DNA from: a virus
IMG/VR virus record: IMGVR_UViG_3300029857_000010
Length of the DNA stretch: 45,791 nt
Direction: 5' to 3' (one strand)
Shown here: positions 4,601 through 38,953 of the stretch, in pieces
Position numbering within the stretch: position 1 is the stretch's first letter
Layout of the letters: every line of letters starts with the position of its first letter
Translations under genes and position numbers: made by a program
Notes under the pieces: generated by a model
Databases searched by the model: none
Told to the model about the DNA's origin: nothing
Seen by the model: only the letters and a program-made list of their open reading frames with translations

Positions 4601-7600
4601 CATAGCTCTTTCGCTAGGTGAAGTCAAAATATCCTGTGCCATAGCATCGCCGCTGTCATAGCCTAAGCTGTCGGCCACCCAGTCAAACAGTTCTCTCTGC
4701 TCGTTAGACAAGGCACGCTTTTTGCTCATCTCCACAAGGTCGACTTTATCCGGATTAGTTTCAAGCTCATGCTTCAAGGCTTTAAGCTCGTTAAGCTCCG
4801 TAAGTTGTTCACCCTCTACCAACGTTTCGGCAATCTCTTTCAAGCCTTCTTCGCTTTTGAGCTTTGCTCTGTCACCGCCGTTGCGAATGTAGTTTCTCGC
4901 CCAGTTATCCTGCACGTCGCTACCCTCATTCTCATTGACGGTATAACCTTCGACAATCTCTCTTGCCATTTCATAGCCGCTGGCATAGCCGTTTTCCTCT
5001 GCTATCTGGTCAAAGAGTTCTTTTTGCTCCTGCGATAATTGGTTGCGCTTACTTTCTTTTACCAAGTCGACACCTTCGGGGTCTGTTTCAAGTCTATGTT
5101 TCAAGGCTTGCAGTCTGTCCAGCTCATCTACAATATGCTTAAAGTCTGCCTTAATTTCAGCGTCGCCATAATCTAAACCGGTGCTACGCAAATCGTAGTA
5201 ATCCGCTATATCTTCGCCTCTTGCAATCTTTTCAGCAATTCTTCTGCGTCCTTTTTTACTGGTCAAGTCGCTTACGCTGCCGCCGTAGTCATGAACGTAT
5301 CTTGATACCCAGTTGACATTACGAATACTGTCACCTGCTTCATGGAATACAAGGCCTTCAATATCCGCTTGCTCTAAAGCTCGCTTAGTCCAATGACGTT
5401 TTCCGTCCTTGCCTATCTCACCAAAATCAACCAAGACTGCGCTTTGGTCCGGTATGCCTGCAAAGTCATTTGCATACTTGCCTTCTGTTCTGTTTGTTGC
5501 GGCGAAGTAGCCCCACTTGCCATTGATAAAAAACGCACGCTCACTCTTGACTGTATCTTGATATTCCGCAAGCTCACTTTCTATTCTGTTAGCAATCGGA
5601 TTTAAAATATCGTCAATAGCTCCGTTTGTATCTTTTAATAATTCGTTATAGTTTATACGTTCATTGCTATAAATATATTTTCTTGCAAGCCTACGCGGAT
5701 TAGCTTCTATTGTTTCCCATTCGTTGATTTTCTGCTTGAAGTTAGCATGAGCCATGCCGTGCTCATCAACAACAAATGTAGGATTGGTTACAGTTTTTTG
5801 TCGTGACTTGCTAAACATAGCAATCAGCATATCTTCGGCATTTGCAACACGCTCTTTAGAAAGTGTGCCGTATGTGTCGACTTCTGCTTGAAGATACTCA
5901 ACTATCGGATTGAGTATATCGTCAATGCTGGCGTTAGTATCGTTCAGCATATCATTATAGTTTGGCAGTACGCTTCCTAAAACGTGCCTGTACTTTCTTG
6001 CTATAATTGCAGGATTGGCAAGCTTTGTTTTGCGCCATGGAGTATCCGAATTATTAGCATGAGCCATGCCGTGCTCATCGTCTATAAAGTGCGAATCAAC
6101 AACCTTAACTTCCTTACCAAACTCATAACCTACCTGGTGTCTTGCACGATTGACAAGCTCCAATGATACTGCTTCTTCAATCTGCGGCCGTATTTCTTCG
6201 ATGAAAGCAGCCTTTTCAGCTCTGCGCTTTGCGCTGAAATCAGCCATTGCTCGTCTTGTCAGAATATCCACGGCCTTGTCTTTAGCCTTCAAGATTTTAT
6301 CCTGCAAGGCTTTTTTATTTTGGTCTGATAACTTGGATGTTATATTCTCTGGCAAGCCGCCGAACATGCCCTCCATGCGTGCCATAACTTCAATTTCTTC
6401 ACGGCACGCCAACATTCTGTCAAATACTTGCCGTACTTCCGGCGTTAATTCTGCCGCATTTTCGCTTCTTGCTATCTTGCTATAAATAGCTGATAACCAA
6501 TTAGCGAATCTCTGGAACACTCCGCGCAAGCCAACACTAGGCGCTTTGCCTTCCATGATGTAGGTTTCAAATGCTTCTGCCAGCTTTTCATGCCCGGCTC
6601 TCTTTGCTTCAACGTCACCGCTTGCCCATGTTTCAGCATCAATGCCTGCATACTCCATGAGTTTTTTTGCATCAGCATTTAGTCTTGTGTTGCTGGGGTC
6701 TGCCAATGCTTCGTTAATCATGGTTTCCACAAAGTAGTGTCCTGTTTCGTGGATAACTGTACTTGCATCTGCGCCCTTAAAAAGCGTGATAACATAAGTA
6801 CCATCATCCATTGGGGAAATCATGCCTTTATCTTTCAGTGTACCATTGACAATTTTTTGTTGCTTGTAATTATCTGCTTTTTGTGATACACTATTAGCAA
6901 AAGAGGACGTTTTGTTTGAGATACTGGGCTGAGCCTTGAATTGCTCGGAACCCGAGGGCTTGAACGCGTCCTCTATTTTTTTATACTCACTTTCGTTAAA
7001 AACATTATGATTATAATATGATAATGATTTATCATTATGTTCTCTTACTGTAACAACTACATAACGTTTTTCACCATTAACATTCAGTGCAGAATGAATA
7101 TAATAAAAATTCTCGTCTGAATGTTTTTCTTTTTGCGGCGCAGATTCTGTAACGAAATTACCATTCTCCATAATTTCACGTAAATAGCGCAATGCAAAAA
7201 GTTTTTCTTTTTTAGCGGAAGTGTGTTCCATTTTCTTTCTGCCACTTGTGCCAAATTTAATATTATTTTCTTGATACCCTTTATCTATTCTAATATCACC
7301 CAATACACCATTATGAACGCTCGTGCCTTGCAAGTTGTCCCTATACCATGCAAAAGCCTTTTTCTGCAAGCTCTTCAAATCTGAATAGTGTCCCATCTCA
7401 TTTCCGGTAATATTAGTAGTATAGAATTGCTCTTTTTTAAGCACTCCTCCCTTGCTAAACCAGCCATTCTTTTGTTTAGCTTTGCCGCCATCTTCAAAGC
7501 GCAGCTTATTCTTTTGCAGCCACGCAGCAGGATTTTCGGGGTCTGCAATAAGCGCGCGGCTCTCCAATACTAAACGCAAATTACCGGCATGAGATTTATT

Positions 7601-9064: not shown

Positions 9065-11164
9065 TTAGTAATCTCCTTTCAGTAACTTTGCAAGATATGC
9101 GCCGTTTATTTTGCCCGATGTGCCATCCAGCCATTTAACATCGTACCAATCATCACCGGTTTTGTTTACGCTTGCGATACCACGTGCAATCAAATCTGCG
9201 TCACTTGCTTTTATATCTTCTGTACTGTCAAACCAGAATGAATGTTTTTCGGTAACATAGCTGCCGTAAACCTTAGTAGTTACGCAGTTTTGCAAGGCTT
9301 CCAACAACTCCGTTTCACCCGGATTCATGCCGTGATTTTTTACGCGATAAGCGCGTACCCATTGCCGCCCGTAGTTTTGGATTTTCTTCTTGTACAGTGC
9401 ATCAGCATTTTTACCTGCGACTTGTTGCACAAGGCCTTCCATATCAAAAGCAAATTCGCCTGTACCGCTATACCAATCTTTGTATATTTTTTCTAACTTC
9501 CCACGCTGCGCAGATGATGCACCTTTGTTAGCAGCGTATGCCAAGAATTGGTCAATGCTTGCAAACTTGCCTTCTTGCAGCATATCTTCCAGTACGCCTA
9601 TTGCATCATCATCAAGTTTTCCATTACTGCTTCCACCGCTACCGCCGCTTCCGCTTCTGCCTTGTGGTCCGTATATTGCCGTCACCGCATTACGATACGT
9701 TACGTACTTATCTGGGTCACTGCCTGCCTGGTTAGTAGCCCACGCCATAGCTTCACTGTAGCTTGTGCCGTTATTAAACATAGCAAATAGATTACTCTTT
9801 ATTCCTTCAAAAAGCTTGTTTTTCTTATAAGTTTCTATTCTGTCATGGTCTGCCTTGATAGTGCGGTACTGCTTCATAATGCGGTCTTGCTCATCCTGGC
9901 TCATGTTGTGGGTGCTATGCCCTGTACCCATTCTTGCCAATACGCTGTCTGCATATTCGTTAATGCTGGGTTCGTCGCCGTTGCCTTGCTTGCGATTCAT
10001 AGCTTCCGCGCTATATTTTAACGCGCCTTCGCCGCCGTACCATGCAATAGCCGCGCCACGTGCACCGTATTTATCATAGTATTGTTTTAACTTAAAACGT
10101 GCTACAATCTCTTGATTTTCCGGTGTCATTTCTGCACCTGCTGGCAAGCCTGCTTCTTGACTCCAGCTAGGCCAGTTATCCGGCATAATCTGATACTTGC
10201 CGCTTGCGCCTGTACGGCCATTCTTGGCGTTATAATTGCCGCCGCTTTCCTGCCCGCCTATTGCAGCAACAAGATTGTCAAATTCATTGCCACCCTCTGA
10301 AAATCCTTTCATGCCTTCAAGTTCTTTGCGCACTGCTTCTTCGTTGTCGCCATATTTAGCATACAAATCTTTAGCAGTATTTCTTTCAAAAGCGCTGCTT
10401 TCTTTATCGTATGCCACCTTCTCAAAAGCGGCGCGCTGATTAGCAGTCAGATAACTACCGTATTTATCCATGATGTTACGCATAGTGCCATAATCTTCGT
10501 TGGTGATACTTGCGCCGACGGCACTCGCTACCACCTGCCCGATGTTGGCTCTGCTCTTAGATTCGATAAACTCTGCGCCACGCTTGCCATATATAGCACT
10601 TGTCAGCAACTGTGTACGAATAATTTCATCTTGCAGCGCCTGCGGGTTGTTCCAGTTCTTCTGTACAAACTCGCAGGAGTTCTGAATATTATTGTCATAG
10701 CGCAAATCAGTGACTGCTTCTTTTTGCTTCTGCTCGTATTGGTCGACAGTCTGGAAGCCTTGCTGTGCGCTCTGATACATTAAATGGTCTAATGCAAGCT
10801 GGTTCTTTTGGCTGTGCAATTTGGTATTGCTTAATACATCCTGCCTTGCTTTATTTATCTGCTCTGTGTAGCTTGCGCCTGCACCGGCAGTGCCTTCTAA
10901 CTTTGTATTCATAAGGCCGCTTTCATCGTTGTACATGATGTTATAACGGCTCTTATTAAATATATCCATAGCATTAAGAATGGACTGTTTGTCCTCATCT
11001 TCCTGCTGTGCTTCTACTGCTACCGCCCATTTGTTGGCGGCGCCGGCAATAGCGGCAAGTCCTTTGCCGCCGCTGCCATAAGCGTTAAGGTCACTCGATA
11101 CCTTGACAGTCGCACCGCTGCCAGCACCTAAATTGACGCTGCCTTGATAACCTGCAATCTTCAT
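9065..11164 (-). CDS. internal virion protein with lytic transglycosylase (SLT) domain, 699 aa
   Basis: Motif GGQESGGNYNAKNGRTGASGKYQIMPDNW (E-S … GA.G..Q) is typical of the SLT catalytic region. Gly/Ser linker SGSGGSGGSS. Gene order matches T7 gp15/gp16. Confidence 0.7.
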   Translation of the reverse strand: MKIAGYQGSVNLGAGSGATVKVSSDLNAYGSGGKGLAAIAGAANKWAVAVEAQQEDEDKQSILNAMDIFNKSRYNIMYNDESGLMNTKLEGTAGAGASYTEQINKARQDVLSNTKLHSQKNQLALDHLMYQSAQQGFQTVDQYEQKQKEAVTDLRYDNNIQNSCEFVQKNWNNPQALQDEIIRTQLLTSAIYGKRGAEFIESKSRANIGQVVASAVGASITNEDYGTMRNIMDKYGSYLTANQRAAFEKVAYDKESSAFERNTAKDLYAKYGDNEEAVRKELEGMKGFSEGGNEFDNLVAAIGGQESGGNYNAKNGRTGASGKYQIMPDNWPSWSQEAGLPAGAEMTPENQEIVARFKLKQYYDKYGARGAAIAWYGGEGALKYSAEAMNRKQGNGDEPSINEYADSVLARMGTGHSTHNMSQDEQDRIMKQYRTIKADHDRIETYKKNKLFEGIKSNLFAMFNNGTSYSEAMAWATNQAGSDPDKYVTYRNAVTAIYGPQGRSGSGGSGGSSNGKLDDDAIGVLEDMLQEGKFASIDQFLAYAANKGASSAQRGKLEKIYKDWYSGTGEFAFDMEGLVQQVAGKNADALYKKKIQNYGRQWVRAYRVKNHGMNPGETELLEALQNCVTTKVYGSYVTEKHSFWFDSTEDIKASDADLIARGIASVNKTGDDWYDVKWLDGTSGKINGAYLAKLLKGDY

Positions 11165-11176
11165 ACTGTACCTCCC

Positions 11177-11839
11177 TTACCAGTTCCATTTAGTAAAGCC
11201 TGTATTATCCATGAACGGGTTATTCTTCTTTGCCTGGTTGTAAAGATTGAAGCCGTTCATATTGCTAGCAGGAAGATTGAAATCACTGTTAGCATCGTAC
11301 CAATCGTCACTGCTTACCGTAGTTGTTCCCTTGCTGCCGCCAATCATACCTTTAGAGTAAGCGTTCGCCGCCGCACCTACAAGCGTACTAAACATCTGCA
11401 TTTTGCCGTTGGCTTTAGCGTTCTTCGCCGCCGCATTATATGCGCTTGCCTGGTTGCGATAATTAACCTCGTTTACATAAGTGCTCCACGCATCATTACG
11501 CTGATTTTGCAACAGATTCATACTGTCTTTTTTGTAAGCGTCCTCGCTGCTTGAAAGAATATCAGCAACACTGCCGCTGTCGGTTAGGCCGCTGCTGCCG
11601 GCCGCCGCCAGTGCCTGCCCTCTTGCAAGCCTCATTCTATCGTTGAGTTGGCTTTGCTTCTGCGCATACGCTTCTGCCTGCTGCTCACGTTGGCGGCTCA
11701 TAATAGCCGCGTTCTGCTGTGCAGCCTGCGCCTGCGCTTTATATGCCTGCTCCTGCTGTTTGGCCTGCTGATGTTGTCCGCTTAACTGCATAACAGTTTG
11801 CAGACCCATTAAGATTCCAAGTGTACCCATTACGCTCAC
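11177..11839 (-). CDS. Q/A-rich internal virion protein (positional T7 gp14-like), 220 aa
   Basis: ORF with low-complexity Gln/Ala-rich coiled-coil-like N-terminus. Call is by position between the gp12-like and gp15/16-like genes. Confidence 0.45.
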   Translation of the reverse strand: MSVMGTLGILMGLQTVMQLSGQHQQAKQQEQAYKAQAQAAQQNAAIMSRQREQQAEAYAQKQSQLNDRMRLARGQALAAAGSSGLTDSGSVADILSSSEDAYKKDSMNLLQNQRNDAWSTYVNEVNYRNQASAYNAAAKNAKANGKMQMFSTLVGAAANAYSKGMIGGSKGTTTVSSDDWYDANSDFNLPASNMNGFNLYNQAKKNNPFMDNTGFTKWNW

Positions 11840-12333: not shown

Positions 12334-15130
12334 CGAAAGACACCTCCCGCACTACCGCCAGCAAGTTAAAAGGATATGGCTCATCCGTAACGATAATCAC
12401 TCTGCCTTCGTTGTTAAAGCCGCCAATAGGCAAAGTCATATGCTTGTCGCCGGTAAATAATTTAATATCGCTCACTGCGTTCTGTTCGTCAAAGTTCATC
12501 AAGTCCATAGTATTTATATCCGGACCGACCATACCGCCAAGAGAATTACTTAAGCGCAGGATGCAATTACTAATCTGCTTTTTGCGTCCTTGCATAGTGC
12601 CGTCGCCCGTCCTAATTTCGACGTTTGGCAGTTCCACGATACTTCTATAGGGCAAGCCAATAAAAGCGTGTTGTACGGCTGCTGGGAGCGTCACAGTGCC
12701 GTCTTGACTTACTGTCAGTCCACTATACATTCTTCCGTCACCGATAACAGTAACTTTTTCGCCTGTCAGCTCTGCTGCATCAATCTCCGTTTCCCCACTG
12801 CTCTTTTCAGCAGTGCTATACTCAATAGCATTATCAAGCATAATATAATCATCGGGGTTATTGCTTTTTGCAGGATTCTTTGCCAGATACTCAATGTTGC
12901 GTACTGTCACGCCGTTTATCTCTCGCTTTACTACAAGATAAATAATATCTTCGTCGCCTTCCTGCACTGCCGCCACTGCTTCAATCTTGCCTTGCGTTTC
13001 TATCGTCGACCAAGCATATACTTTCTGTTCCATGATGTAGGATAAGCAAGCCATAGTCCCGTCACTTCTCACAAAATATATAGTGCTGTCGGGTTCCTGC
13101 TTATATGCACTGTCGACAATCTGTACATTCTCTATGATATGCTTTGCTAGCAATGTTAAGTCATTGCCGCCGTAGCTGTCTGTTTCATAACTATATGCCA
13201 TATCCCTTACAGTGCTTCCACGTCCTTGTACAAACACGATTCTGCCGCCAATCATCAACGGCTCAACAGTGCTGCATCCGCGTGTAGTCTGCATTTTGGG
13301 AACGGCTTTAGATGGGGTTACAGTATCGCTGCCGCTTACTGTCCATTCGTTGCCAGCGGTCAAGACAATTAAATCGGTGCTTGCTATCAAATGCAAAATC
13401 TTAAACTGCTTGCGGCTTACAAACGCAAGTGCTACTGCGCTATCATCGGTAACAGCGCCACTGGCTTTCTCTACACTGAAATTGCCGTAGTCACCGGTTC
13501 TGCTCATCCATACCATGTAAGGCTGCTTCTTCGTGCCGCCAAAACATAGTCTGTCCTGGAAAAAGCAAAGTGTTTGCGGGTAGCCGAATTCTTCACTCCA
13601 TGCGCCCCACAAGAAATTAGTAGTCATATCTGTTGAGCCTAGCTCTTTTTCAACATGAGCTTTTGCCGTGCTGTCGCTGGTGATTTCAGTAAGTTTTACA
13701 ACGCCTTCCGCATTGTAGGCCATTGCTGTTAAATCAACAGTGCAAGTACCACTACTGATAGTGCATACCGCTCTTAAAAACACCGGCTCTGTTACACTGC
13801 CGCTTTCAGACGGATTATAGTCGTCCTTAGAAGTATATTTCCTGTATTCCTTCCAACTTTCGCCATCGTCACTCTTTTCTATAGCAAAACTGCCGCTCCA
13901 GGTCCCGTGACTGATAACCTTCCAATTTTCGCCTACGCGCACTCTTTCCGTAGTACCGTTGCTGGTTGATACAGTCTTACTTGCAATCTCTTGTTTAAGT
14001 TTGATATACGCACCCGGCTTGCTGTTAGTAAAAATGTTTTTGTTGCTCGATAAGGTAATATCACCTTGAGTTCCCGAAGGTGTCAATTCTTTATTGCCGG
14101 TATATAAAATCTTTACCCAACCATTAGCGCCTGCTTTACCACTCACACCGCCCTTTCTTGTACCGCCTGCACCACCTGCCGCACCGCCACCTTCGCCGTA
14201 TGTTATGCCCTGCGTGCCAGCATTAGAATAATAACCATCCTTACCATACCTGCGACTGGCAGCACCACCTGCGCCGCCGCCTCTGCCTGTTAGTCCACAC
14301 GCCGTACTGTCTGCGCCTTTAGTGCCGCTAGTAGCTGTTGTATCTTCGTAGTTGCCTGCACTATAAGCATAAGCACCGCCGCTGCCACCGCCGCCGACTG
14401 TAATCGTGTAACTTGTTTCTTTAGATAGCGTTATAGTTTTTATAATGCGTTCACCACTGCCGCCGTCGCCACCTTTGGCGGCATAATTATAAACTTGGTG
14501 TTCTCCGTGCCTTTTCCATGTAACGGCACCACCACCGCCGCCGCCTGCACCGGCTATATCAATCTGATATTCGCCGGTAACAGTCGGCTGAAATTGATAA
14601 GTGCCAGGCACTGTATAACTTATGCCGCTATAATTTTCAAGTGAGGTTGATTCGTCGAAATACATATCCGTAATTTCAAAATCAGCAAAGCGCCAGTCAG
14701 TGTCTGAATATCTTGCAAGCTGTTTCACGGGATATTTGCCGCTTGCAATAAACATAGTGTCTGCGCTTTGTACAAATCTCAAATCTTGCAGCATATCTGC
14801 CGTGTATGGTGTCATAACTTCTATGTTTATATAAAGTCCGTTCTTATGCACTCTTATATATTTTTCGCCAATCTCCAAAAGATAGTCGGTATTGTCTGCG
14901 CCGTTGAACGGTACCAGGATGCACGCTTTGTCACTATACTTTGTTCGTGCCATATACTTCATGCCCGGTCTGCGATAAATAGGGCCGTGCGGCTTGATAA
15001 GGCAGTTATAGGCCTGCAGGACCGCAAACTGATACTTATCTAAATCGACGCGGTTTGCAACTTCGGCGCTGATTTCGCCGCCGGTAAACGCAGGCTGCAA
15101 TAAATAATAAGGTGTTAACCCACTAGCCAT
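12326..15130 (-). CDS. tail tubular protein B (T7 gp12-like) with a Gly-rich insertion, 934 aa
   Basis: The segment LCFFQDRLCFGG…MSRTGDYGNFS…DDSAVALAF…DLIVLTAGNEWTVSG aligns with the T7 gp12 segment FFFRNRLGFLSG…LSRTAKYFNFY…DDPIDVAVS…ELLIWSDEAQFVLTASG. A Gly-rich block (GAGGGGGGAV…GGGGSGG…GGGAGGAAS…GGGAAGGAGG) lies at about nt 14096-14548. Confidence 0.7.
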   Translation of the reverse strand: MASGLTPYYLLQPAFTGGEISAEVANRVDLDKYQFAVLQAYNCLIKPHGPIYRRPGMKYMARTKYSDKACILVPFNGADNTDYLLEIGEKYIRVHKNGLYINIEVMTPYTADMLQDLRFVQSADTMFIASGKYPVKQLARYSDTDWRFADFEITDMYFDESTSLENYSGISYTVPGTYQFQPTVTGEYQIDIAGAGGGGGGAVTWKRHGEHQVYNYAAKGGDGGSGERIIKTITLSKETSYTITVGGGGSGGAYAYSAGNYEDTTATSGTKGADSTACGLTGRGGGAGGAASRRYGKDGYYSNAGTQGITYGEGGGAAGGAGGTRKGGVSGKAGANGWVKILYTGNKELTPSGTQGDITLSSNKNIFTNSKPGAYIKLKQEIASKTVSTSNGTTERVRVGENWKVISHGTWSGSFAIEKSDDGESWKEYRKYTSKDDYNPSESGSVTEPVFLRAVCTISSGTCTVDLTAMAYNAEGVVKLTEITSDSTAKAHVEKELGSTDMTTNFLWGAWSEEFGYPQTLCFFQDRLCFGGTKKQPYMVWMSRTGDYGNFSVEKASGAVTDDSAVALAFVSRKQFKILHLIASTDLIVLTAGNEWTVSGSDTVTPSKAVPKMQTTRGCSTVEPLMIGGRIVFVQGRGSTVRDMAYSYETDSYGGNDLTLLAKHIIENVQIVDSAYKQEPDSTIYFVRSDGTMACLSYIMEQKVYAWSTIETQGKIEAVAAVQEGDEDIIYLVVKREINGVTVRNIEYLAKNPAKSNNPDDYIMLDNAIEYSTAEKSSGETEIDAAELTGEKVTVIGDGRMYSGLTVSQDGTVTLPAAVQHAFIGLPYRSIVELPNVEIRTGDGTMQGRKKQISNCILRLSNSLGGMVGPDINTMDLMNFDEQNAVSDIKLFTGDKHMTLPIGGFNNEGRVIIVTDEPYPFNLLAVVREVSFGG

Positions 15131-23364: not shown

Positions 23365-23452
23365 AGCTGACGGCGGCCCCGTTGGGGGCCGTAAAGCTGC
23401 CAGGCAGAAGGTCCGAAGCCCTAGCCAACAGCCGAAAGGAGAGAATAAGAAA

Positions 23453-24397
23453 ATGACTTTTGAAAAGTATAATGCGAACCCCGAAAATAAGAATATCGGT
23501 GATTGCTCAATTAGAGCTATCTGCACGGCAACCCCGTTAACCTACCAGCAGGCTAAAAAGCTGCTGGAAACAAAGGTATTTGAAAGCGGCGCTGCATGGA
23601 ACACCGTGAAGAACATCACCGCCGCCCTGGCTGACCTGGGAATTGAAGTTAAAGCCGCCAGCCGCGAAACAGTCAACAGCTTTACAAAGCATTGCGATAC
23701 CGGCGCCAGCTACGTTGTTTTTGTAGCAAAGCACGCCGTAGCCGTTGTTAATGGCGTTATCTATGATACATGGGACAGCAGCCGCCGTTTTGTAAAGCTG
23801 GTTGCCAAAGTCAGCCGTGAAAAATTTGACGAATTGAAAGCCAAATACAACCCGGAACCTAAAAAGGAGGAAAAGAAAATGGACTGGAAAAAGATTTTTG
23901 CCGCTTGCGAAACAATCGAGGAACTGAAAAAGGCGTTTAAAAAAGCCTGCATGACTTGCCACCCCGACAAGGGAGGCACGGCCGCCGAATTTAAGGCAAT
24001 GAGCGCAGCGCACGACAAGCGCGCCGCCGAACTTGCCGAAAGTGAAAGCCGCCAGGAGTGGCAGCGCAACAAGAAAGCGGACGGCACTTATAAAACAGCC
24101 GCCGAAATCCTGGCCGAACAGGCGGAATTTGCCGAAATCCTGGCCGTGCTGATGGGCTTGAAGGGCCTTGAAATTGAAATCTGCGGCAGCTGGTTATGGA
24201 TAGGCGGCGAAACGAAAGAGAACAAAGACGCCTTGAAAGGCGCCGGCTGCCGTTGGGCCAGCAAGAAAAAATTATGGTATTGGCATGCTGGCGAATGGGT
24301 GAAGAAGGTCCGCCGCGCGTTGACCATGGACGAAATCCGCGACCTGCACGGCAGCGAGTTGTTGAAATACCGCCCGGAAACGCCCTTGTTACAATAG
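23453..24397 (+). CDS. J-domain (DnaJ-like, HPD motif) protein with an N-terminal putative Cys/His peptidase-like domain, 314 aa
   Basis: J-domain signature IEELKKAFKKACMTCHPDKGGTAAEFKAMSAAHDKRA, with the HPD codons at 23960-23968. N-terminus has …NIGDCSIRAI… and …KHAVAVVNGVIYDTWD…. An in-frame internal SD AAAGGAGG plus ATG lies at 23862-23881. Confidence 0.65.
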   Translation: MTFEKYNANPENKNIGDCSIRAICTATPLTYQQAKKLLETKVFESGAAWNTVKNITAALADLGIEVKAASRETVNSFTKHCDTGASYVVFVAKHAVAVVNGVIYDTWDSSRRFVKLVAKVSREKFDELKAKYNPEPKKEEKKMDWKKIFAACETIEELKKAFKKACMTCHPDKGGTAAEFKAMSAAHDKRAAELAESESRQEWQRNKKADGTYKTAAEILAEQAEFAEILAVLMGLKGLEIEICGSWLWIGGETKENKDALKGAGCRWASKKKLWYWHAGEWVKKVRRALTMDEIRDLHGSELLKYRPETPLLQ

Positions 24398-24478
24398 CCG
24401 AAACGCCGCCCCGTGCGGCGTATACCGGGGACCGGCCGCCCCGGTACTGATGAGGCAGGCCAAAGGAAGGAGATAAGA

Positions 24479-24709
24479 ATGAAAATAGCTATTATAAGCA
24501 AATTGACACCCGAGCATCCGGCGTGGAAGCACGGGAAGCGCTTAGACGTAAAAATCTTTACGCAGCTTTACCCCGGCGGCCCGCAATATTATTGCGGAAA
24601 CGGCAAATATTGTGAAGATATGGAAGCGGTAAAAGCTTTTATCGCAGAAGAAGCGCCGGACAAAATCAGCGACGAAAGGACAATAGGAGGCTTGAAAAAT
24701 GAAGCGTGA
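24479..24709 (+). CDS. hypothetical protein, 76 aa
   Basis: ORF with SD AAGGAAGGAG. The track's longer start at 24413 has no SD. Confidence 0.5.
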   Translation: MKIAIISKLTPEHPAWKHGKRLDVKIFTQLYPGGPQYYCGNGKYCEDMEAVKAFIAEEAPDKISDERTIGGLKNEA

Positions 24710-24878
24710 AGAAGCGTTAAAATTGTTGCTGAAGATTGAAGAATTCCGGCAGCAACCGGCAATGCATAAGGCGGAACATGATTTTACGTGTCGCATTATC
24801 GCCGCTATGGTTGCGGAAGCAGGCGGCTTTAAAAGCCGGAACGAATGGACCGCAGAAATCAAGGAGGCTTTAAAGTGA
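24699..24878 (+). CDS. small hypothetical protein, 59 aa
   Basis: ATG with SD AGGAGG 8 nt upstream. Overlaps the upstream gene by 11 nt. Below the ORF-track size cutoff. Confidence 0.4.
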   Translation: MKREEALKLLLKIEEFRQQPAMHKAEHDFTCRIIAAMVAEAGGFKSRNEWTAEIKEALK

Positions 24879-25030
24879 AGCGAAAAGAGCGCAAACATCA
24901 ATATTTAAAGCTTGCCAAATCTTTACGCAGTTTGTCACACGCTAAAGGCGGCGTTAAAAAATTAACATACGCCCAGCAGTGCGCGTATTGGGACAGCGTG
25001 AGCTTGCTATATTTGTTCAATCTTTTGTAA
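24875..25030 (+). CDS. small basic hypothetical protein, 51 aa, GTG start
   Basis: GTG preceded by AAGGAGG (24861-24867). Overlaps the previous stop. Confidence 0.3.
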   Translation: MKRKERKHQYLKLAKSLRSLSHAKGGVKKLTYAQQCAYWDSVSLLYLFNLL

Positions 25031-25110
25031 AGGACCCACTACACCGGCAGGAATGCCGCTGCCGGTGTAGAATATTAAAGGCAGAAGCGATTTTTTAGGA
25101 GGAATTAACC

Positions 25111-25620
25111 ATGTTGAAAGAAGTTAAAAACAACGTTTATAACGCCCTTTTTGTAGCCGCCGATGAAGAAGGCCAGCGCTACGCCGCTTTTGAATCCGAC
25201 TGGAACGGCGAATATTGGGAAGCGACCGCCTGCACGGAAAGCGGCGAGCTTATCAAAGGCGAAACCACTAAGCTTTACCCCGTTCACGTTTACCACGCTG
25301 GAACCGACGAATACGAAGAAGTGGGCTACGATGAAGAAGCGCCCCGCGTTCTGCTGCCTGGCTGGCGCGACTACCAGAAGTGCGGCTATAACGAAAGCTA
25401 TTCCCTGGCCCCCGTCGCTTACAGTGAAGCGAGTGACCGCGTTTACATGATGCTGCCGGAAGGCGCTAGCGTTTACGCTGATGACGCAGGCTGCCCGGTG
25501 ATTGATTTTGACGGCTTTAAACAAGCCGACGTAATTAACCAATATGACGGCAGCAGCTGCCGCCCGTATATCATCGGCAATGACCGCCGCCGCGCATATC
25601 TGGAAGTTGTCGAACTATAA
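25111..25620 (+). CDS. acidic hypothetical protein, 169 aa
   Basis: SD TAGGAGGA. Strongly acidic composition. CRPYI motif shared with the 26068 gene. Confidence 0.55.
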   Translation: MLKEVKNNVYNALFVAADEEGQRYAAFESDWNGEYWEATACTESGELIKGETTKLYPVHVYHAGTDEYEEVGYDEEAPRVLLPGWRDYQKCGYNESYSLAPVAYSEASDRVYMMLPEGASVYADDAGCPVIDFDGFKQADVINQYDGSSCRPYIIGNDRRRAYLEVVEL

Positions 25621-25674
25621 CCCCGAATCACCCGCCCGGCGCAAGCCGGGCTATTATCGAAAGGAAGCGAAAAC

Positions 25675-26055
25675 ATGAAAAATTTTGTCGGCTTGAAAGC
25701 CGAAATCAAAAAGCAGAAAGCTATCCGCGCCCGGCTTGACAATGAGCGCGGCCGCCAAACTGTTAATTGGAAAGCCGCAACTTTTCGCCTGGCGTTGCTG
25801 AACCATTGGAAGCGTCAAGGCGTAGGGCTGCCGGACAACTACAGACAGCTTTGGAACCCGCCCACTAATTGGACCGCGCGCACGTTGAAAGAACGCACGC
25901 CGCTGCACGTTTGGGAAGTTGACGCATTGCGCGCGGGATTGGTTGCAGAAGCGTGCAAAAAATTTAAAAACGCAACGTCCCCGCTTATTCGTTGGATGAT
26001 AAGAGATGAGCTGGCGGCAAAAGTTACCGAATTGTACCGCCGCCCGGTATTTTAA
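25675..26055 (+). CDS. basic Trp-rich hypothetical protein, 126 aa
   Basis: ORF with SD AAAGGAAG. Confidence 0.5.
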   Translation: MKNFVGLKAEIKKQKAIRARLDNERGRQTVNWKAATFRLALLNHWKRQGVGLPDNYRQLWNPPTNWTARTLKERTPLHVWEVDALRAGLVAEACKKFKNATSPLIRWMIRDELAAKVTELYRRPVF

Positions 26056-26067
26056 GGAGGAAGAATA

Positions 26068-26436
26068 ATGGAAACTAAAACCTTTTACGCACTGAAAAGA
26101 AATGCTATCTGGCTGCCGCGCCGCAACCACGGCAAGGACTACAAAACCTACACCCCGTTAATCAGCCTGGAAGCGCAGGATGATTGTGAGCCCGTCGAGC
26201 TACAGCGCAGCGAAAGCCTGGAAGAACTCAAAACTGTTTTGAACAGCGACGCTTGCCGCCCCTACATCGACAACAAGAGCGGCAGCGATACTCTCTATGT
26301 AGAATACTACGTAGAGGAAGCGGAATACACCCGTGACGATGAAAGCGAGGACTGGGAGTTTTCCGCCGGTTCGATGTACTATGAGCGTGAAGCGGATAAC
26401 ACGCCGATGAGCGACAGGAAGAAGGCTAGTTTATGA
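26068..26436 (+). CDS. acidic hypothetical protein, 122 aa
   Basis: SD TAAGGAGGAAG. Acidic composition. CRPYI motif. Confidence 0.55.
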   Translation: METKTFYALKRNAIWLPRRNHGKDYKTYTPLISLEAQDDCEPVELQRSESLEELKTVLNSDACRPYIDNKSGSDTLYVEYYVEEAEYTRDDESEDWEFSAGSMYYEREADNTPMSDRKKASL

Positions 26437-26654
26437 AAGAGAAAAAAATGTGTAAATTAAAAATCGTGGGACTGGCGGAAAGAGAACGCCGCTTGTTTAA
26501 AATGTACCTTTATGAAATCGGGTACACGCTAGAAGATGTTGGGACTATTGAGGCCGTGCGGGAAGTGGAAGTTAAAAAGCTCAAAAAGTTTGTTGAACTT
26601 CTGAACGGCAACATCGAAATTTTAGACACATGGGAAGTTGCCAACTATTTCTAA
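26433..26654 (+). CDS. hypothetical protein, 73 aa
   Basis: ATGA start/stop overlap with the upstream gene. Last gene before the terminator. Confidence 0.5.
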   Translation: MKEKKMCKLKIVGLAERERRLFKMYLYEIGYTLEDVGTIEAVREVEVKKLKKFVELLNGNIEILDTWEVANYF

Positions 26655-26660
26655 AACACA

Positions 26661-26691
26661 AGCCCCAGGGCAAACGCCCTGGGGCTTTTCT
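26661..26691 (+). terminator. rho-independent terminator of the plus-strand operon
   Basis: Perfect 10-bp stem AGCCCCAGGG/CCCTGGGGCT, 6-nt loop, then a TTTTCT run. Confidence 0.75.
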
Positions 26692-26722
26692 ATATCCTGC
26701 AAACGTGAGCAGGCTATATATT

Positions 26723-26751
26723 TTTGAAGTCGAAATGTTTTACAGGTATAA
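26723..26751 (+). promoter_or_regulatory. orphan sigma-A-type promoter (TTGAAG-17-TATAAT)
   Basis: -35 at 26723-26728, -10 at 26746-26751, 17-nt spacer. No ORF with an SD downstream before the terminator. Confidence 0.5.
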
Positions 26752-26757
26752 TCACTA

Positions 26758-26850
26758 GGGCTGCCATGATTGGAATGCGTGGCGGCCCTTTTCCGTGCGT
26801 GCAGCGCATACTTTAGGGAAGCAAAAAGCCCGGCAGCGCCGGGCTTTTCT
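26758..26850 (+). ncRNA. candidate small noncoding RNA of about 90 nt (promoter to intrinsic terminator, no ORF)
   Basis: Bounded by the promoter at 26723-26751 and the terminator hairpin at 26826-26846. Only a 16-codon ORF lacking an SD. Confidence 0.35.
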
Positions 26851-26962
26851 TTTGGTGCGATTTTGTAAAGAAAATCAACAATATTTCAATCCGTGCCAGC
26901 TTTACGCCTTTAGAGCTGAACCGACAAGCACAATACTCAAAAGGCGCTTGCGCTTATCGACA
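26822..26962 (-). ncRNA. candidate small noncoding RNA of about 140 nt on the minus strand
   Basis: Minus-strand promoter TTGCTA-17-TATAAT (complement 26968..26996) reads into the bidirectional terminator. No ATG-initiated ORF. Confidence 0.3.
26826..26850. terminator. bidirectional rho-independent terminator
   Basis: 9-bp stem AAGCCCGGC/GCCGGGCTT with a 3-nt loop, flanked by an A-run upstream and a T-run downstream. Confidence 0.7.
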
Positions 26963-26967
26963 AGGCT

Positions 26968-26996
26968 ATTATACCACGGTACCAAACCAATAGCAA
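26968..26996 (-). promoter_or_regulatory. orphan sigma-A-type promoter on the minus strand
   Basis: -10 TATAAT at complement(26968..26973), -35 TTGCTA at complement(26991..26996). Confidence 0.4.
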
Positions 26997-27040
26997 GCGT
27001 TTTCTTAACGCGTGGAAGCGACAGCACCGCGCGCCTGCCT

Positions 27041-27541
27041 TTACTTTTCTTGCTTCTGTTCTGCCCTGGCCTTTTGGAAGCTGTTGGCGTTTATGTCAAT
27101 CCGTAATAGTCCTTCTTGAATCGCCAGCATGAGTAGGCCGTCAATGAATGAGCGGCGTCGAAGCGCGTACACCTGCGGGCTAATCTCATCCATAACGGAG
27201 ATTTTGCAGACCGTCCAATGGTATACATACCGGTGCTGAATCGCCTTATAAGACTTGTCACCAAACCGCTGCCGAAACAGAAGAAGCGAACGCTCCATAA
27301 CATCCAGCCATTTTTCCGGCTGGTAAACCAAAAACGCCTGCCCAAGATAAATACACCGGACCGCAGCAAGCGGCGTAACAGCTTGAATCGCAAGGCGTGC
27401 CGTAGAATCGCCGCCGGTCCTCATATCAAATTCCAAGCGTTCCGCCCTCTGCTGCATCCTGGCGGAAACAACCGCTTTACCAATCGCATTTTTGGCAAAG
27501 AACAAACTCTCTGCGTGGTCTGCTGCTTCTGCGTAATCCAT
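27041..27541 (-). CDS. hypothetical protein, 166 aa
   Basis: ORF 5 nt downstream of the SSB stop. Last gene of the early minus-strand block. Confidence 0.45.
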   Translation of the reverse strand: MDYAEAADHAESLFFAKNAIGKAVVSARMQQRAERLEFDMRTGGDSTARLAIQAVTPLAAVRCIYLGQAFLVYQPEKWLDVMERSLLLFRQRFGDKSYKAIQHRYVYHWTVCKISVMDEISPQVYALRRRSFIDGLLMLAIQEGLLRIDINANSFQKARAEQKQEK

Positions 27542-27546
27542 TTTCT

Positions 27547-27933
27547 TTACCAGTCCACATCATCGAGCGGGTCTTTCCGTTCCTCTTTCGGAGGATACGG
27601 CGCTGTGTTTTCCGCAATCCGGACACATTCCAAATGCTCCATCAGCAAGTAGCTTGCTTTAGAATTTTTGCCGTTCCTATCCACGTATAAATCAGTCTGA
27701 AAGCGGCCGCCCACAATAACTTGCGAGCCTTTTGTAACAAAATTGCTGATATATTTAATCAGTCCAGGCACAAAGCAGCGGCAAGAAATGTAATCGTAAA
27801 CGCGCTTATTATCTTTATCCCGATATTGGCGCGCACACTGTATTTCCAAAGTGCACACCTCTTTGCCGTTCTTCATAACTTTTGCATCCGGTTCAAATTT
27901 CACCCAGCCAAGTATCAAACAATTATTCAACAT
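27547..27933 (-). CDS. ssb: single-stranded DNA-binding protein
   Basis: OB-fold SSB N-terminal pattern (…LILGWVKFEPD…) and an acidic C-terminal tail DPLDDVDW. Confidence 0.7.
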   Translation of the reverse strand: MLNNCLILGWVKFEPDAKVMKNGKEVCTLEIQCARQYRDKDNKRVYDYISCRCFVPGLIKYISNFVTKGSQVIVGGRFQTDLYVDRNGKNSKASYLLMEHLECVRIAENTAPYPPKEERKDPLDDVDW

Positions 27934-28348
27934 TATAAATTTTCACCTCAACTTTTGGCGTATCACTATATTTTTTAGAAACTGTAAGTTTAACAATCTG
28001 TTTATCATCCTTATAGACAATGCCAGATATAGAATCAAGAATAATTTTTGCGACGTTGTCAACATCGGGTTTTTTAATCGGCAGCTGCAAGCCGTTTAAA
28101 GCCTGCTCCTTGAATTTTTTCGACTTGCTGGCAGGAATACCCACGTCAGCTATTATCTCTACTCGCAACGGCAATTCCGTGAGCGTCAGCCCTATATTTT
28201 GCATCGCTTCACTAGCTAACAGTTTGACGTAGGCTTTATAGTTACGGCTTTTCTCCGGGTCGTATGCTTTTGCAAATCCGCCATGAGTAGAAAAGCGAGG
28301 CCGTCCCTGCGCCGTCGGTTCGCCTGGAATCGTAAATGTTAATTTCAT
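27923..28348 (-). CDS. rusA: RusA-family Holliday junction resolvase
   Basis: Motifs GEPTAQGRPRF and KKPDVDNVAKIILDSISGIVYKDDKQIV are characteristic of RusA. Confidence 0.7.
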   Translation of the reverse strand: MKLTFTIPGEPTAQGRPRFSTHGGFAKAYDPEKSRNYKAYVKLLASEAMQNIGLTLTELPLRVEIIADVGIPASKSKKFKEQALNGLQLPIKKPDVDNVAKIILDSISGIVYKDDKQIVKLTVSKKYSDTPKVEVKIYNVE

Positions 28349-28740
28349 TTTTCTACCTCCTTCACAGCTTTACTTGCTTTTAAAATTTTCTCAATTAGCT
28401 TATCCACGGCCTTGTCCGCAAGTTCGCCGGTAGCTTCAATGTTTGCTGGTGTTATACGCCCTGCCACATACATCGCAATCATTTCATCTTTAGTTGGAAC
28501 AGCCATTGCAAGCACATCAACAATTAAGGCCACGCAGGTTAGTTTCTTCGTGAAATTTAAAAATGCTTTACCAAAGCCATTGTAGTCACTGCCGCAATCA
28601 GCGCGGCTTGAAACAATCCCTGTTATGCTTATGCCAGCACCCATGGTTAGTAAAACCCCTGCTACAATGCAGAAGTGATGTATCATGTCCATTCTTCCTG
28701 CCCAGTAAATCAACCACGGCGAAACAATCGGTTCGTTCAT
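28345..28740 (-). CDS. hypothetical membrane protein, 131 aa
   Basis: ORF with predicted TM segments. Confidence 0.45.
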   Translation of the reverse strand: MNEPIVSPWLIYWAGRMDMIHHFCIVAGVLLTMGAGISITGIVSSRADCGSDYNGFGKAFLNFTKKLTCVALIVDVLAMAVPTKDEMIAMYVAGRITPANIEATGELADKAVDKLIEKILKASKAVKEVEK

Positions 28741-36054: not shown

Positions 36055-36420
36055 ATGAAAGAGCGTTTAAAGCTATTGCGCAAAGCTTTAAAACTAAATC
36101 AACAGGAGTTTGCGGATAAAATTCAGGTCAATCGTTCTACCGTTGCTGGTTATGAACGCGGCTCAACGAATTTATCAGAGCGAACAATCACAGACATCTG
36201 CCGTGTATTTTACGTTAATGAAGATTGGCTACGTACTGGCGAAGGTGAAATGTTCCGTGCCAGGAATACAACCAACGAAGAATTAGCACTGCAAGTTGGC
36301 AAACTGCTAAAGACAGATGATGAGTTTACCAAGAATCTATTTTTGGAATATCTCAAACTGCCGCCCGAAATGAAAACTTTATTTGAAGATTTCGTTCACA
36401 ATCTGGCGAAAAGCAAATAA
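36055..36420 (+). CDS. CI-like XRE-family repressor, 121 aa
   Basis: HTH NQQEFADKIQVNRSTVAGYERG. Transcribed divergently from the early operon and adjacent to the integrase. Confidence 0.65.
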   Translation: MKERLKLLRKALKLNQQEFADKIQVNRSTVAGYERGSTNLSERTITDICRVFYVNEDWLRTGEGEMFRARNTTNEELALQVGKLLKTDDEFTKNLFLEYLKLPPEMKTLFEDFVHNLAKSK

Positions 36421-37933: not shown

Positions 37934-38953
37934 ATGAAATTACCTAACGGCTATGGCTCTGTTACGAAGCTGACCGGGAACCGGCGGCGGCCGTATATGG
38001 TCCGCATTACAACGGGCTTTACCGATGAAGGTCGCCAGCTTATGAAAATACTAGGCTACTATGCAAAGCGCACGGAAGCCCTTAATGCCCTGGCTGAATA
38101 CAATCAATCACCCTATGATGTTGAAAGCGTAGGCTTGACGTTTGCCCAGGTACACGAGAGATGGGAAGCCGCAACCTACGTTGACGGCAAAGAGCAATCT
38201 AACCAATATAAGGCAGCATATAAGCGCTGCGCGCCACTATGGGATATACCGTTCAAAGATATTAAGACTGCGCAATTTCAGCAAGTCATAAATGACTGCG
38301 ACAAAGGCTACGCTACCAAGAAGGCAATCCGAATCGTATGTAATCTGATGGCCAAATATGCGCTTGCTAATGATATTATAGTAAAAAATTATGTTGAGCT
38401 TACTAGCCTACCGCCCCAGGTTGAAAGCAGAATACACAATCCGCTTACTAAAAAGGAGCTTGCTATATTATGGGAAAACAGCAAGGATATAAAAGTGCAA
38501 GCCGTGCTTATCCTCTGTTATACCGGCATGCGCCCCACCGAGCTAGTGAAGGTTGAGAAGGCGAACGTCGACTTTGAAAATAAATTCTTCGTTGGCGGCA
38601 TGAAAACTGCGGCAGGCCGCGGCAGAAGAATTCCTATTGCTGATAAAATATTCGACTTCTTCAAGGATGCTTGTGAACGCAGCACCGGCGAATATATCTT
38701 TTCTGATGAACGGGGCAAGAATATATCCTATGACGCATACCGCAGCAGATATTGGGAACCGGTAATGAATATGTTTAAGATGGACCACTTGCCCGGTGAC
38801 GGCCGCCACACTTGCGCAAGCCTGCTTGATGATAAAGACGTAAATGTAAAAATCAAGAAGCTAATTCTGGGGCACGCCAGCTCCGATGTAACGGAAAGGG
38901 TTTACACTCATAAGACGTTGGAACAACTATTAGAGGCTATAAATTTAATATAG
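37934..38953 (+). CDS. int: tyrosine recombinase / integrase with AP2-like arm-binding N-terminus
   Basis: N-terminus MKLPNGYGSVTKLTGNRRRPYMVRIT is the AP2-like arm-binding domain signature. Catalytic region has TGMRPTEL and LGHASSDVTERVYTH (H-x-x-R…Y). Confidence 0.8.
   Translation: MKLPNGYGSVTKLTGNRRRPYMVRITTGFTDEGRQLMKILGYYAKRTEALNALAEYNQSPYDVESVGLTFAQVHERWEAATYVDGKEQSNQYKAAYKRCAPLWDIPFKDIKTAQFQQVINDCDKGYATKKAIRIVCNLMAKYALANDIIVKNYVELTSLPPQVESRIHNPLTKKELAILWENSKDIKVQAVLILCYTGMRPTELVKVEKANVDFENKFFVGGMKTAAGRGRRIPIADKIFDFFKDACERSTGEYIFSDERGKNISYDAYRSRYWEPVMNMFKMDHLPGDGRHTCASLLDDKDVNVKIKKLILGHASSDVTERVYTHKTLEQLLEAINLI

Follow-up and report, generated by a model that had tools for sequence, protein, structure and literature searches.

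A structured phage RNA with a CRISPR-repeat-like tail between two convergent operons of a Phascolarctobacterium succinatutens prophage

What does a phage encode in a gap that is furnished with promoters and terminators and in which no open reading frame (ORF) is conserved? The question is raised by the 386-bp gap at positions 26655-27040 of IMG/VR record IMGVR_UViG_3300029857_000010 (45,791 nt; "the window" below means that whole stretch), where an accessory operon and an early block converge. An initial annotation had placed in it two ORF-less units that face each other across a bidirectional terminator, each with its own promoter, and had read them as candidate small RNAs. The best explanation of the gap is that of two independent ORF-less promoter-to-terminator RNA genes, R1 on the plus strand and R2 on the minus strand. 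R2 represents a new family of structured RNAs that Rfam 15 does not contain, and we propose, at a probability of roughly 0.45, that it is a viral mimic of CRISPR repeats (short palindromic repeats that are clustered and regularly interspaced), of the Racr or Cracr kind described below, which would engage type I-C-like Cas proteins of the host as a sink or as a pseudo-guide. The signals of the gap are the following:

26660..26692, plus strand: T1, the intrinsic terminator that ends the accessory operon (hairpin 26660-26687, 12 bp of which 9 are G-C, then a U-run)
26696..26713, no strand assigned: CCTGC-N8-GCAGG, an inverted repeat immediately ahead of the R1 -35 hexamer
26724..26752, plus strand: R1 promoter, TTGAAG-17-TATAAT, 10/12 matches
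26824..26848, both strands: T2, the bidirectional intrinsic terminator common to R1, R2 and the early operon (11 bp, U-runs on both strands)
26820..26961, minus strand: predicted R2 RNA, ~140 nt, with a GUC start at ~26961 and its end in the T2 U-run
26968..26996, minus strand: R2 promoter, TTGCTA-17-(TG)TATAAT, with an extended -10 TG, 10/12 matches
26997..27011, minus strand: weak 5-bp hairpin past the stop codon of the last early gene (27041-27541)

Both promoters, T1 and T2 lie within 1-2 nt of where the initial annotation had put them, and the two promoters are the top-scoring ones in 25500-28500, a region with 8 promoter-like sites (3.2 +/- 1.6 expected) and 14 terminator-like sites (4.3 +/- 2.0 expected). 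We mapped the gap onto 52 IMG/VR relatives that share the 166-aa product of the last early gene at 91-99% identity. The -35 and -10 hexamers of both promoters are retained in these relatives and their spacers have diverged. The R2 TATAAT is present in 34/34 distinct units of R2 and of R2', a diverged second copy with its own promoter and terminator, and hexamers of the R2 type are found again in R2' and in the unrelated phage L271. T1 is kept at 88-100% identity in nearly all relatives, irrespective of the gene upstream, and T2 is replaced in many of them by another bidirectional hairpin (AAAAAGGCCGAGGCGAAAGCCCCGGCTTTTTT). The arms of CCTGC-N8-GCAGG are disrupted in some relatives (CCTATA.., CCTACA..), so its pairing is not maintained; it is possibly an operator and not an RNA helix. 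Predicted R1 and R2 transcripts, terminator included, fold better than shuffles (z = -2.8 and -2.7, respectively). Since no strong terminator follows the last early gene, transcripts of the early operon probably continue into R2 and end at T2. Where relatives have no R2, T2 stands directly after the early-operon tail, and R2 is thus an insertion between the last early gene and its terminator.

We then looked at R2 itself, which from 5' to 3' is predicted to comprise two hairpins joined by a loop-loop helix, an unpaired tail and a variable stretch ahead of T2:

26922..26959, minus strand: hairpin P1, 12 bp (26959-26948 with 26933-26922), 14-nt loop
26940..26947, minus strand: 5' strand of the loop-loop (kissing) helix, formed by GCGCCUUU of the P1 loop
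between P1 and P2, minus strand: the GGU linker that precedes P2
26896..26919, minus strand: hairpin P2, 6 bp (26919-26914 with 26901-26896), 12-nt loop
26904..26911, minus strand: 3' strand of the loop-loop helix, formed by AAAGGCGU of the P2 loop
26883..26895, minus strand: unpaired, handle-like CACGGAUUGAAAU directly 3' of P2, identical to or one base from the 11-nt 5'-handle end (...GCGCGGAUUGAAAC) of type I-C/I-G-like repeats
26849..26882, minus strand: AU-rich "pseudo-spacer", ~34 nt, variable, with hairpin P3 (26859-26876)

Covariance and structure prediction, the check that the initial annotation had proposed, came out in favour of R2 through its compensatory pairs. Across 21 distinct R2/R2' cores and 26 pairs (546 cells), 99.3% of cells hold a standard pair, compared to 33-44% when the 3' partners are slid as a control, and 11/26 pairs have changed on both sides. 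The loop-loop helix (8 bp) is paired in 100% of cells and covaries as well, from G-U to A-U in R2' and from C-G to U-A in the second copies of two relatives (L024b/L046b). Read from the opposite strand, the frequent G-U pairs would turn into A-C mismatches, and this identifies the minus strand as functional. The site in the window scores 102 bits under a covariance model of the family. Taken on these comparative grounds, R2 is strongly supported as a real structured RNA gene. An alternative helix between the P1 3' strand and the pre-handle (GUGC/GCAC), suggested by an Rfam alignment, was rejected: R2 variants that have a C at the position concerned keep A68, and P1 pairing explains them. Two variants look defective from their sequence. 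In L051 the unit is an R2/R2' chimera in which the halves of P1 do not match, and which arose either by recombination or in assembly. In L028 (L028/L059) both the handle (GGAACGGATTAAAAT) and the kissing loop bear substitutions, and these look like decay.

The handle segment CACGGAUUGAA of R2 is near-invariant, and CGGATTGAA is unchanged in 34/35 distinct units. The pseudo-spacer exists as three or four alternative cassettes that have recombined at the handle. Within a cassette type the 13-19 nt nearest the handle do not change, whereas the distal part does. The distance from the handle to the terminator stem is ~33-35 nt, the size of a spacer.

Among the 52 relatives the gap proved to consist of two cassettes, R1 and R2, each present independently of the other. 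A strict pattern finds R1 (T1, plus-strand promoter and RNA) intact in 44, a number that is probably 46, though the 73-aa gene upstream is common to only 7. R2 is absent from 18, single in 23 and tandem in 11, and it has been lost through at least three different deletions. Four relatives (L004, L009, L016 and L052) have microhomology deletions that remove the R1 promoter or half of the RNA. More broadly, deletions recur at L004, L009/L014, L016, L052 and L006-type loci (window equivalents 26700-27020) at microhomologies of 4-9 nt (GCAG, GGAAGCGA, ATTGGAA, TTAC), and one of them fuses the R1 loop with a similar AATTGGAA inside a 126-aa gene. The junction is a recombination hotspot. This modular presence, absence and duplication, the loop-loop pseudoknot and the CRISPR-repeat-like tail had all escaped the initial annotation.

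The gross layout of the gap recalls a type I toxin-antitoxin pair. Loci such as Enterococcus par (fst/RNA II) and Bacillus txpA/RatA have a bidirectional terminator common to convergent RNAs, of which one codes for a small hydrophobic toxin, and here too the promoters converge from ~240 bp apart onto one bidirectional terminator. Such a locus would need a small toxin ORF, and none is conserved: a 16-codon ORF in the plus unit loses its start (ATG to ATA) in several relatives, a 12-codon ORF in the minus unit is not preserved in R2', and neither it nor a 41-codon ORF is preserved in R2' or in relatives without R2. The overlap of the two RNAs is moreover confined to the terminator, and R1 and R2 occur independently. 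The small-protein or toxin reading was hence rejected, and a type I system is effectively refuted. The view that neither unit encodes a protein was thereby borne out, and ORF 26795-27106 indeed runs through T2, as had been noted. Known RNA families did not account for the gap either. No Rfam 15 family reached its gathering threshold in 26400-27300 (searched at gathering and at E<=10), and the best sub-threshold matches there were driven by terminators (MicC, 24.6 bits vs 90; Spot_42, 22.4 bits vs 80). ARAGORN found no tRNA in the gap.

A covariance model of the R2 core revealed a third subfamily in IMG/VR contig L271 (IMGVR_UViG_3300045988_071606, RNA gene at 11391-11457), and the same element occurs in L380 and L382. 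The L271 phage has 37% G+C and shows no blastn or tblastx similarity to the window. Its element retains the promoter motif (GCGCTTGCTATTG...TGTGGTAAAAT), the GUC start, the GGU linker, CACGGAUUGAA, the AU-rich stretch, the P3 hairpin and the terminator, and CGGATTGAA is likewise retained in L271, L380 and L382. The sequences of P1 and P2 are completely different from those of the window R2. With this subfamily added, both-side changes affect 12/18 nested pairs (8/12 in P1, with up to four pair types per position, and 4/6 in P2) and 99.0% of cells are paired, in an alignment that was fitted to the covariance model and so leans toward structure. Overall, slid controls of R2 are paired in 28-44% of cells, against 99% for the true partners. 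L271 also carries a canonical type I-C mini-array at 13684-13781 (minus strand), two copies of GTCGCTCCTCTCGTGGGAGCGTGGATTGAAAT around a 34-nt spacer, 2.2 kb from the R2-family gene; the spacer has no match among the sequences collected. Two further contigs with the promoter-plus-handle pattern, L379 and L381, were discarded as chance matches in coding DNA. With compensatory changes, a strand signal from G-U pairs, conserved promoters and a homologue in an unrelated phage, the minus-strand half of the two-RNA proposal stood; for the plus-strand half, discussed below, the evidence is circumstantial.

From its position, one could suspect that R2 acts in cis, as a terminator-resistance element of the put kind that would allow read-through of T2 and T1 toward the late genes, or antisense over the accessory operon, or else as a structured 3' untranslated region of the early operon. 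Two stem-loops starting at +3 of the transcript are followed by terminators, R2 points toward the late genes on the same strand, and no strong terminator separates it from the last early gene. The extreme 5' position of its stem-loops upstream of terminators is indeed shared with the put RNAs of phage HK022. Unlike them, R2 has no downstream cargo genes, is dispensable and duplicable, and bears a conserved single-stranded tail with exchangeable 3' cassettes. The next gene on its strand is 4.4 kb away, beyond an operon of the opposite strand; the element is missing from the 18 relatives mentioned above, and where it is in tandem each copy has its own promoter and terminator; the L271 copy faces a convergent gene; and an invariant handle with interchangeable cassettes is left without explanation. 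We consider a role in cis improbable.

RNA-based anti-CRISPRs have been recognised recently, and have so far been found by plain similarity to repeats or to host regulators resembling CRISPR RNAs (crRNAs). Racrs are RNA anti-CRISPRs made of solitary repeat units, with competition for Cas proteins as their proposed action (Camara-Wilpert et al. 2023, PMC10651486). They are defined by high identity to host repeats (RacrIC1 matches 29/34 positions), and further marks of the group are a promoter within ~250 bp upstream, no adjacent cas genes, frequent co-location with anti-CRISPR (acr) genes, binding to Cas proteins and inhibition of interference (PMC10651486). Cracrs are viral crRNA-like anti-CRISPR RNAs (Liu et al., bioRxiv 10.1101/2024.10.29.618823). 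CracrVA1 is built of one pseudo-repeat, a pseudo-spacer and a rho-independent terminator, tandem arrays of type I-C Cracrs exist, and members are expected to match a host cas or toxin promoter with at least 9 pseudo-spacer nt proximal to, and beside, a protospacer-adjacent motif, and to resemble host CreA/CreR (bioRxiv 10.1101/2024.10.29.618823).

Several features of R2 recall these RNAs. Real array repeats collected from IMG/VR and metagenomes, for example GTCGCCCCTTCACAGGGGCGCGGATTGAAAC and GTCGCTCCCTTCGCGGGAGCGCGGATTGAAAC, share with it the GU, the stem-loop and the 11-nt handle. Handle and pre-handle together match real repeats over 13-14 nt, and real arrays ending in ...GGGGCGCGGATTGAAAC share 14 consecutive nt with the 3' end of R2'. 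Repeats that end in ...GUGGAUUGAAAU, the U variant of the handle, are typed I-C in the tables of the Racr paper (PMC10651486). Other gut-phage contigs (L333, L344, L328/L349) have a promoter, a non-canonical hairpin, GUGGAUUGAAAU, a short AT-rich pseudo-spacer and a terminator. Degenerate strings of repeat-like hairpins ending in (G/C)GGAUUGAAA were seen in L333 (~3100-3350), in L344 (minus strand, ~5900-6070), in L328/L349 and in L108 (nine copies at an irregular spacing of 35-66 nt); judging from their sequence, these promoter-driven strings are probably viral type I-C crRNA-like arrays. A copy number of 0, 1 or 2 with at least three independent deletions is what one expects of a dispensable counter-defence module. 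We infer, too, that a handle kept across phages which differ in G+C and have no detectable shared sequence agrees better with a near-universal I-C handle than with an mRNA target specific to one host.

Like Cracrs, R2 is phage-borne with its own promoter and combines a repeat-like element, a spacer-like stretch and a rho-independent terminator (P2 and handle, ~34 nt of AU-rich sequence, T2), a layout repeated in R2', in the L271-type elements and in the tandem copies; these can be stacked with different pseudo-spacers, and the conserved part is the repeat-proximal one. Unlike Cracrs, it resembles a real repeat only in its GU start, hairpin and 11-13-nt handle, its 12-nt loop is locked to an extra 5' hairpin through an 8-bp kissing helix, and its tandem copies each have a promoter and a terminator instead of forming one array transcript. 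Like Racrs, R2 is a solitary repeat-like unit of a prophage, close downstream of a strong promoter (TTGCTA-17-TGnTATAAT, kept in every unit, precedes the repeat-like hairpin by ~65 nt) and away from cas genes, of which none was found among the window ORFs checked. In contrast to Racrs, it would fail a repeat-identity filter, has an extra structured 5' domain and no recognised acr gene alongside. With the mini-arrays (repeat-spacer-repeat) of phages such as L271 it shares the GGAUUGAAA handle, the spacer-sized spacing and a location in accessory regions of gut phages; it differs in having one degenerate repeat-like hairpin, a terminator hairpin in place of the second repeat and a conserved tertiary structure.

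The mimic interpretation was adopted because of the handle likeness, the spacer-sized cassettes, the units in other phages, the Racr and Cracr literature and the L271 mini-array. In this proposal P2 with CGGAUUGAA would imitate a type I-C-like repeat (GU-stem-loop-stem, then an 11-nt handle), and the AU-rich stretch with the G+C-rich terminator hairpin would imitate a spacer and the hairpin of the next repeat. Starting from the structure, modularity and motif described above, we infer that abundant R2 could be bound by the Cas5, Cas7 and Cas8 proteins of the host. It might then act as Racrs do, titrating these proteins into useless complexes, or as Cracrs do, loading them with a pseudo-guide of the phage's choosing that represses cas or guardian genes. 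P1 would clamp the P2 loop; no such part is seen in the mimics described so far. A bolder version, which we regard as rather unlikely, has R2 define a class of anti-CRISPR RNAs, structured and so far undescribed, which moved between gut phages that are not related to one another: a kissing-clamped mimic of the I-C repeat, stable and possibly uncleavable, that would trap Cas5c or Cascade, with an exchangeable pseudo-guide cassette that re-aims or disables immunity and with R1 as a second decoy or as a regulator of R2.

A number of observations weigh against a CRISPR mimic. A covariance model of 16 real repeats gives the R2 site 12.5 bits (E=0.21), which is chance level, and only the handle aligns. 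An equally good match of the same model lies inside a gene: at 28585-28614 (plus strand), GUCACUG-N7-CAGCGCGGCUUGAAAC, antisense in the membrane-protein gene 28345-28740, is the best match in the window (13.5 bits, E=0.1), and we treated it as chance and as the yardstick for the resemblance of R2. The match to Rfam CRISPR-DR9 is of 16 bits only (gathering score 45), chance would give 1.6 occurrences of GGATTGAA on its own per window, and the likeness was recognised after the fact. In geometry, the P2 loop has 12 nt and is engaged by P1, there are 2 extra nt between stem and handle, and the P3 hairpin within the pseudo-spacer is odd for a guide. The repeats with which the handle was compared are those of arrays from IMG/VR and metagenomes. 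Arrays with CGGATTGAAA or TGGATTGAAA handles, sought in metagenome and viral sequences, yielded ~3,600 spacers, none of which matches the phage. No acr homologue was recognised near R2, and the small acidic proteins encoded nearby have no sequence match in Pfam, PHROG, NCBIfam or the PDB, which is still compatible with a novel Acr. As for L271, it was met in a set that had been chosen for I-C arrays, no array is seen in the stretch available of its relatives L380 and L382, and the handle of its true repeat (UGGAUUGAAAU) differs from that of its R2-like element (CGGAUUGAAAA), so that the motif looks inherited and not tuned to each host.

External sources added little on the CRISPR systems of the host. 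A literature search found nothing on Phascolarctobacterium CRISPR types; a Cas1c protein search gave at least 120 matches, all close relatives of the query, and the cas locus of P. succinatutens is not among the matches listed; neither this phage nor its host is listed in the supplementary tables of the Racr paper (PMC10651486).

The strongest competitor of the mimic proposal, to which we give a minor though substantial share, is that R2, and possibly R1, are ordinary riboregulators that base-pair in trans, in which P1, P2 and the kissing helix form a stable 5' scaffold, CGGAUUGAA and the AU-rich stretch serve as the mRNA seed and the handle likeness is a coincidence. Both units lack an ORF and have a promoter and an intrinsic terminator of their own, a conserved single-stranded stretch between hairpins is a classic layout of small RNAs, and the chance-level score of the repeat model agrees with it. 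A motif common to the R1 loop and the R2 tail, GAUUGRAAY (GAUUGGAAU in R1, one base from GAUUGAAAU in R2), could mean a shared target and has 5 sites in the window vs 1.85 expected; from sequence, this likeness is suggestive. The search for complementarity to mRNAs that the initial annotation had recommended did not come through, however: the R2 seed and pseudo-spacer have no convincing target in the window, where the best seed matches are of 10-11 nt and without context, and an RNAduplex scan of the whole window was uninformative (implausible long duplexes, z ~ -4). BLAST of both against all collected sequences returned only family members and deletion remnants. It would also be unusual for a seed to be kept across phages of different G+C without detectable similarity while its adjacent extension is swapped as cassettes, and the spacer-sized distance to the terminator and the GU-hairpin-handle geometry would be left unexplained.

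The case of R1 is different. Its predicted features are:

26758..26853, plus strand: predicted R1 RNA, ~95 nt, with hairpin H1, a U4 run, a weak second hairpin and T2
26758-26766 with 26780-26788, plus strand: H1, the 5' hairpin, 9 bp, G+C-rich, with a 13-nt loop containing GAUUGGAAU

R1 is confined to this phage lineage, its copies are 96% identical, and it is conserved no better than the remainder of this group of close relatives. No pair has changed on both sides and pair statistics equal those of shuffles, so covariation neither supports nor refutes a structure. The second hairpin is broken in 9 cells, and of the two registers considered for it neither is consistently kept. These data, with the deletions of promoter or half RNA in four relatives, speak for R1 as a non-functional by-product of a conserved junction (T1, a recombination anchor, a shared terminator), or as a unit that only drives antisense transcription or transcriptional interference against the end of the early operon. 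This possibility is orthogonal to the other alternatives, and we would not bet on it. R1 is intact in 44-46 of the 52 relatives despite a differing gene upstream of T1. Most relatives keep its promoter hexamers (L009 has lost the -10, which in L023 reads TATAAC), and the transcript folds better than shuffles, as given above. The interior changes in H1 are one-sided and keep pairing on the plus strand only (U-G to C-G, and G-C to G-U twice). A small RNA is a plausible, unproven reading of R1.

The rest of the window shows in which kind of phage the gap is found. The main genes are:

~22437, minus strand: start of the packaging and structural genes
23453-26654, plus strand: accessory operon
~34762 down to 27041, minus strand: early block, with RecE-like, RecT, replisome organizer, HNH, RusA, SSB and a 166-aa unknown
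27041-27541, minus strand: 166-aa gene, the last early gene
27547-27933, minus strand: SSB gene of the early block
27923-28348, minus strand: RusA gene of the early block
36055-36420, plus strand: repressor-like helix-turn-helix gene
37934-38953, plus strand: integrase

The phage is a temperate, siphovirus-like prophage, and INPHARED blastn gave no match to a known phage. Its integrase is present on many metagenome contigs, where the prophage abuts rpsI-rplM-truA-ecfT-ecfA. The S9 and TruA proteins beside it are identical to those of Phascolarctobacterium succinatutens, and a contig of P. succinatutens CAG:287 also bears the phage. The host is therefore P. succinatutens. In all eight places read, out of 24 contigs, the prophage is inserted immediately next to rpsI, the gene of ribosomal protein S9 (L371-L378, ~11020-11600).

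Two further observations concern the accessory operon. A 314-aa ORF at 23453-24397 (phrog_15863, with a weak DnaJ-like stretch) is flanked by ribozymes on the plus strand: a Twister-P5 at 23365-23423 (47.9 bits vs a gathering score of 37.6), which ends 30 nt ahead of the start codon, and a type II hammerhead at 24396-24464 (51.8 bits vs a gathering score of 37), which starts 1 nt before the end coordinate of the ORF. The pair would cut a monocistronic mRNA out of the accessory operon. The last accessory gene, the 73-aa gene at 26433-26654 (plus strand), has a weak sigma-70 region-4-like helix-turn-helix (E 0.01-1 vs WhiG, RpoD and ECF models), and a small DNA-binding protein encoded last in an operon of small acidic proteins is reminiscent of acr-aca operons.

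Should R2 be unrelated to CRISPR, it is still a well-supported new family of phage RNA, with a pseudoknot, a mobile promoter-to-terminator cassette, an exchangeable 3' module and a presence in two unrelated phage lineages. If R2 is an RNA anti-CRISPR, strongly diverged mimics with tertiary structure would evade similarity screens, and only structure-aware comparison would find them. It would also give a first handle on the conflict between phages and CRISPR in Phascolarctobacterium, a common and little-studied genus of the human gut.

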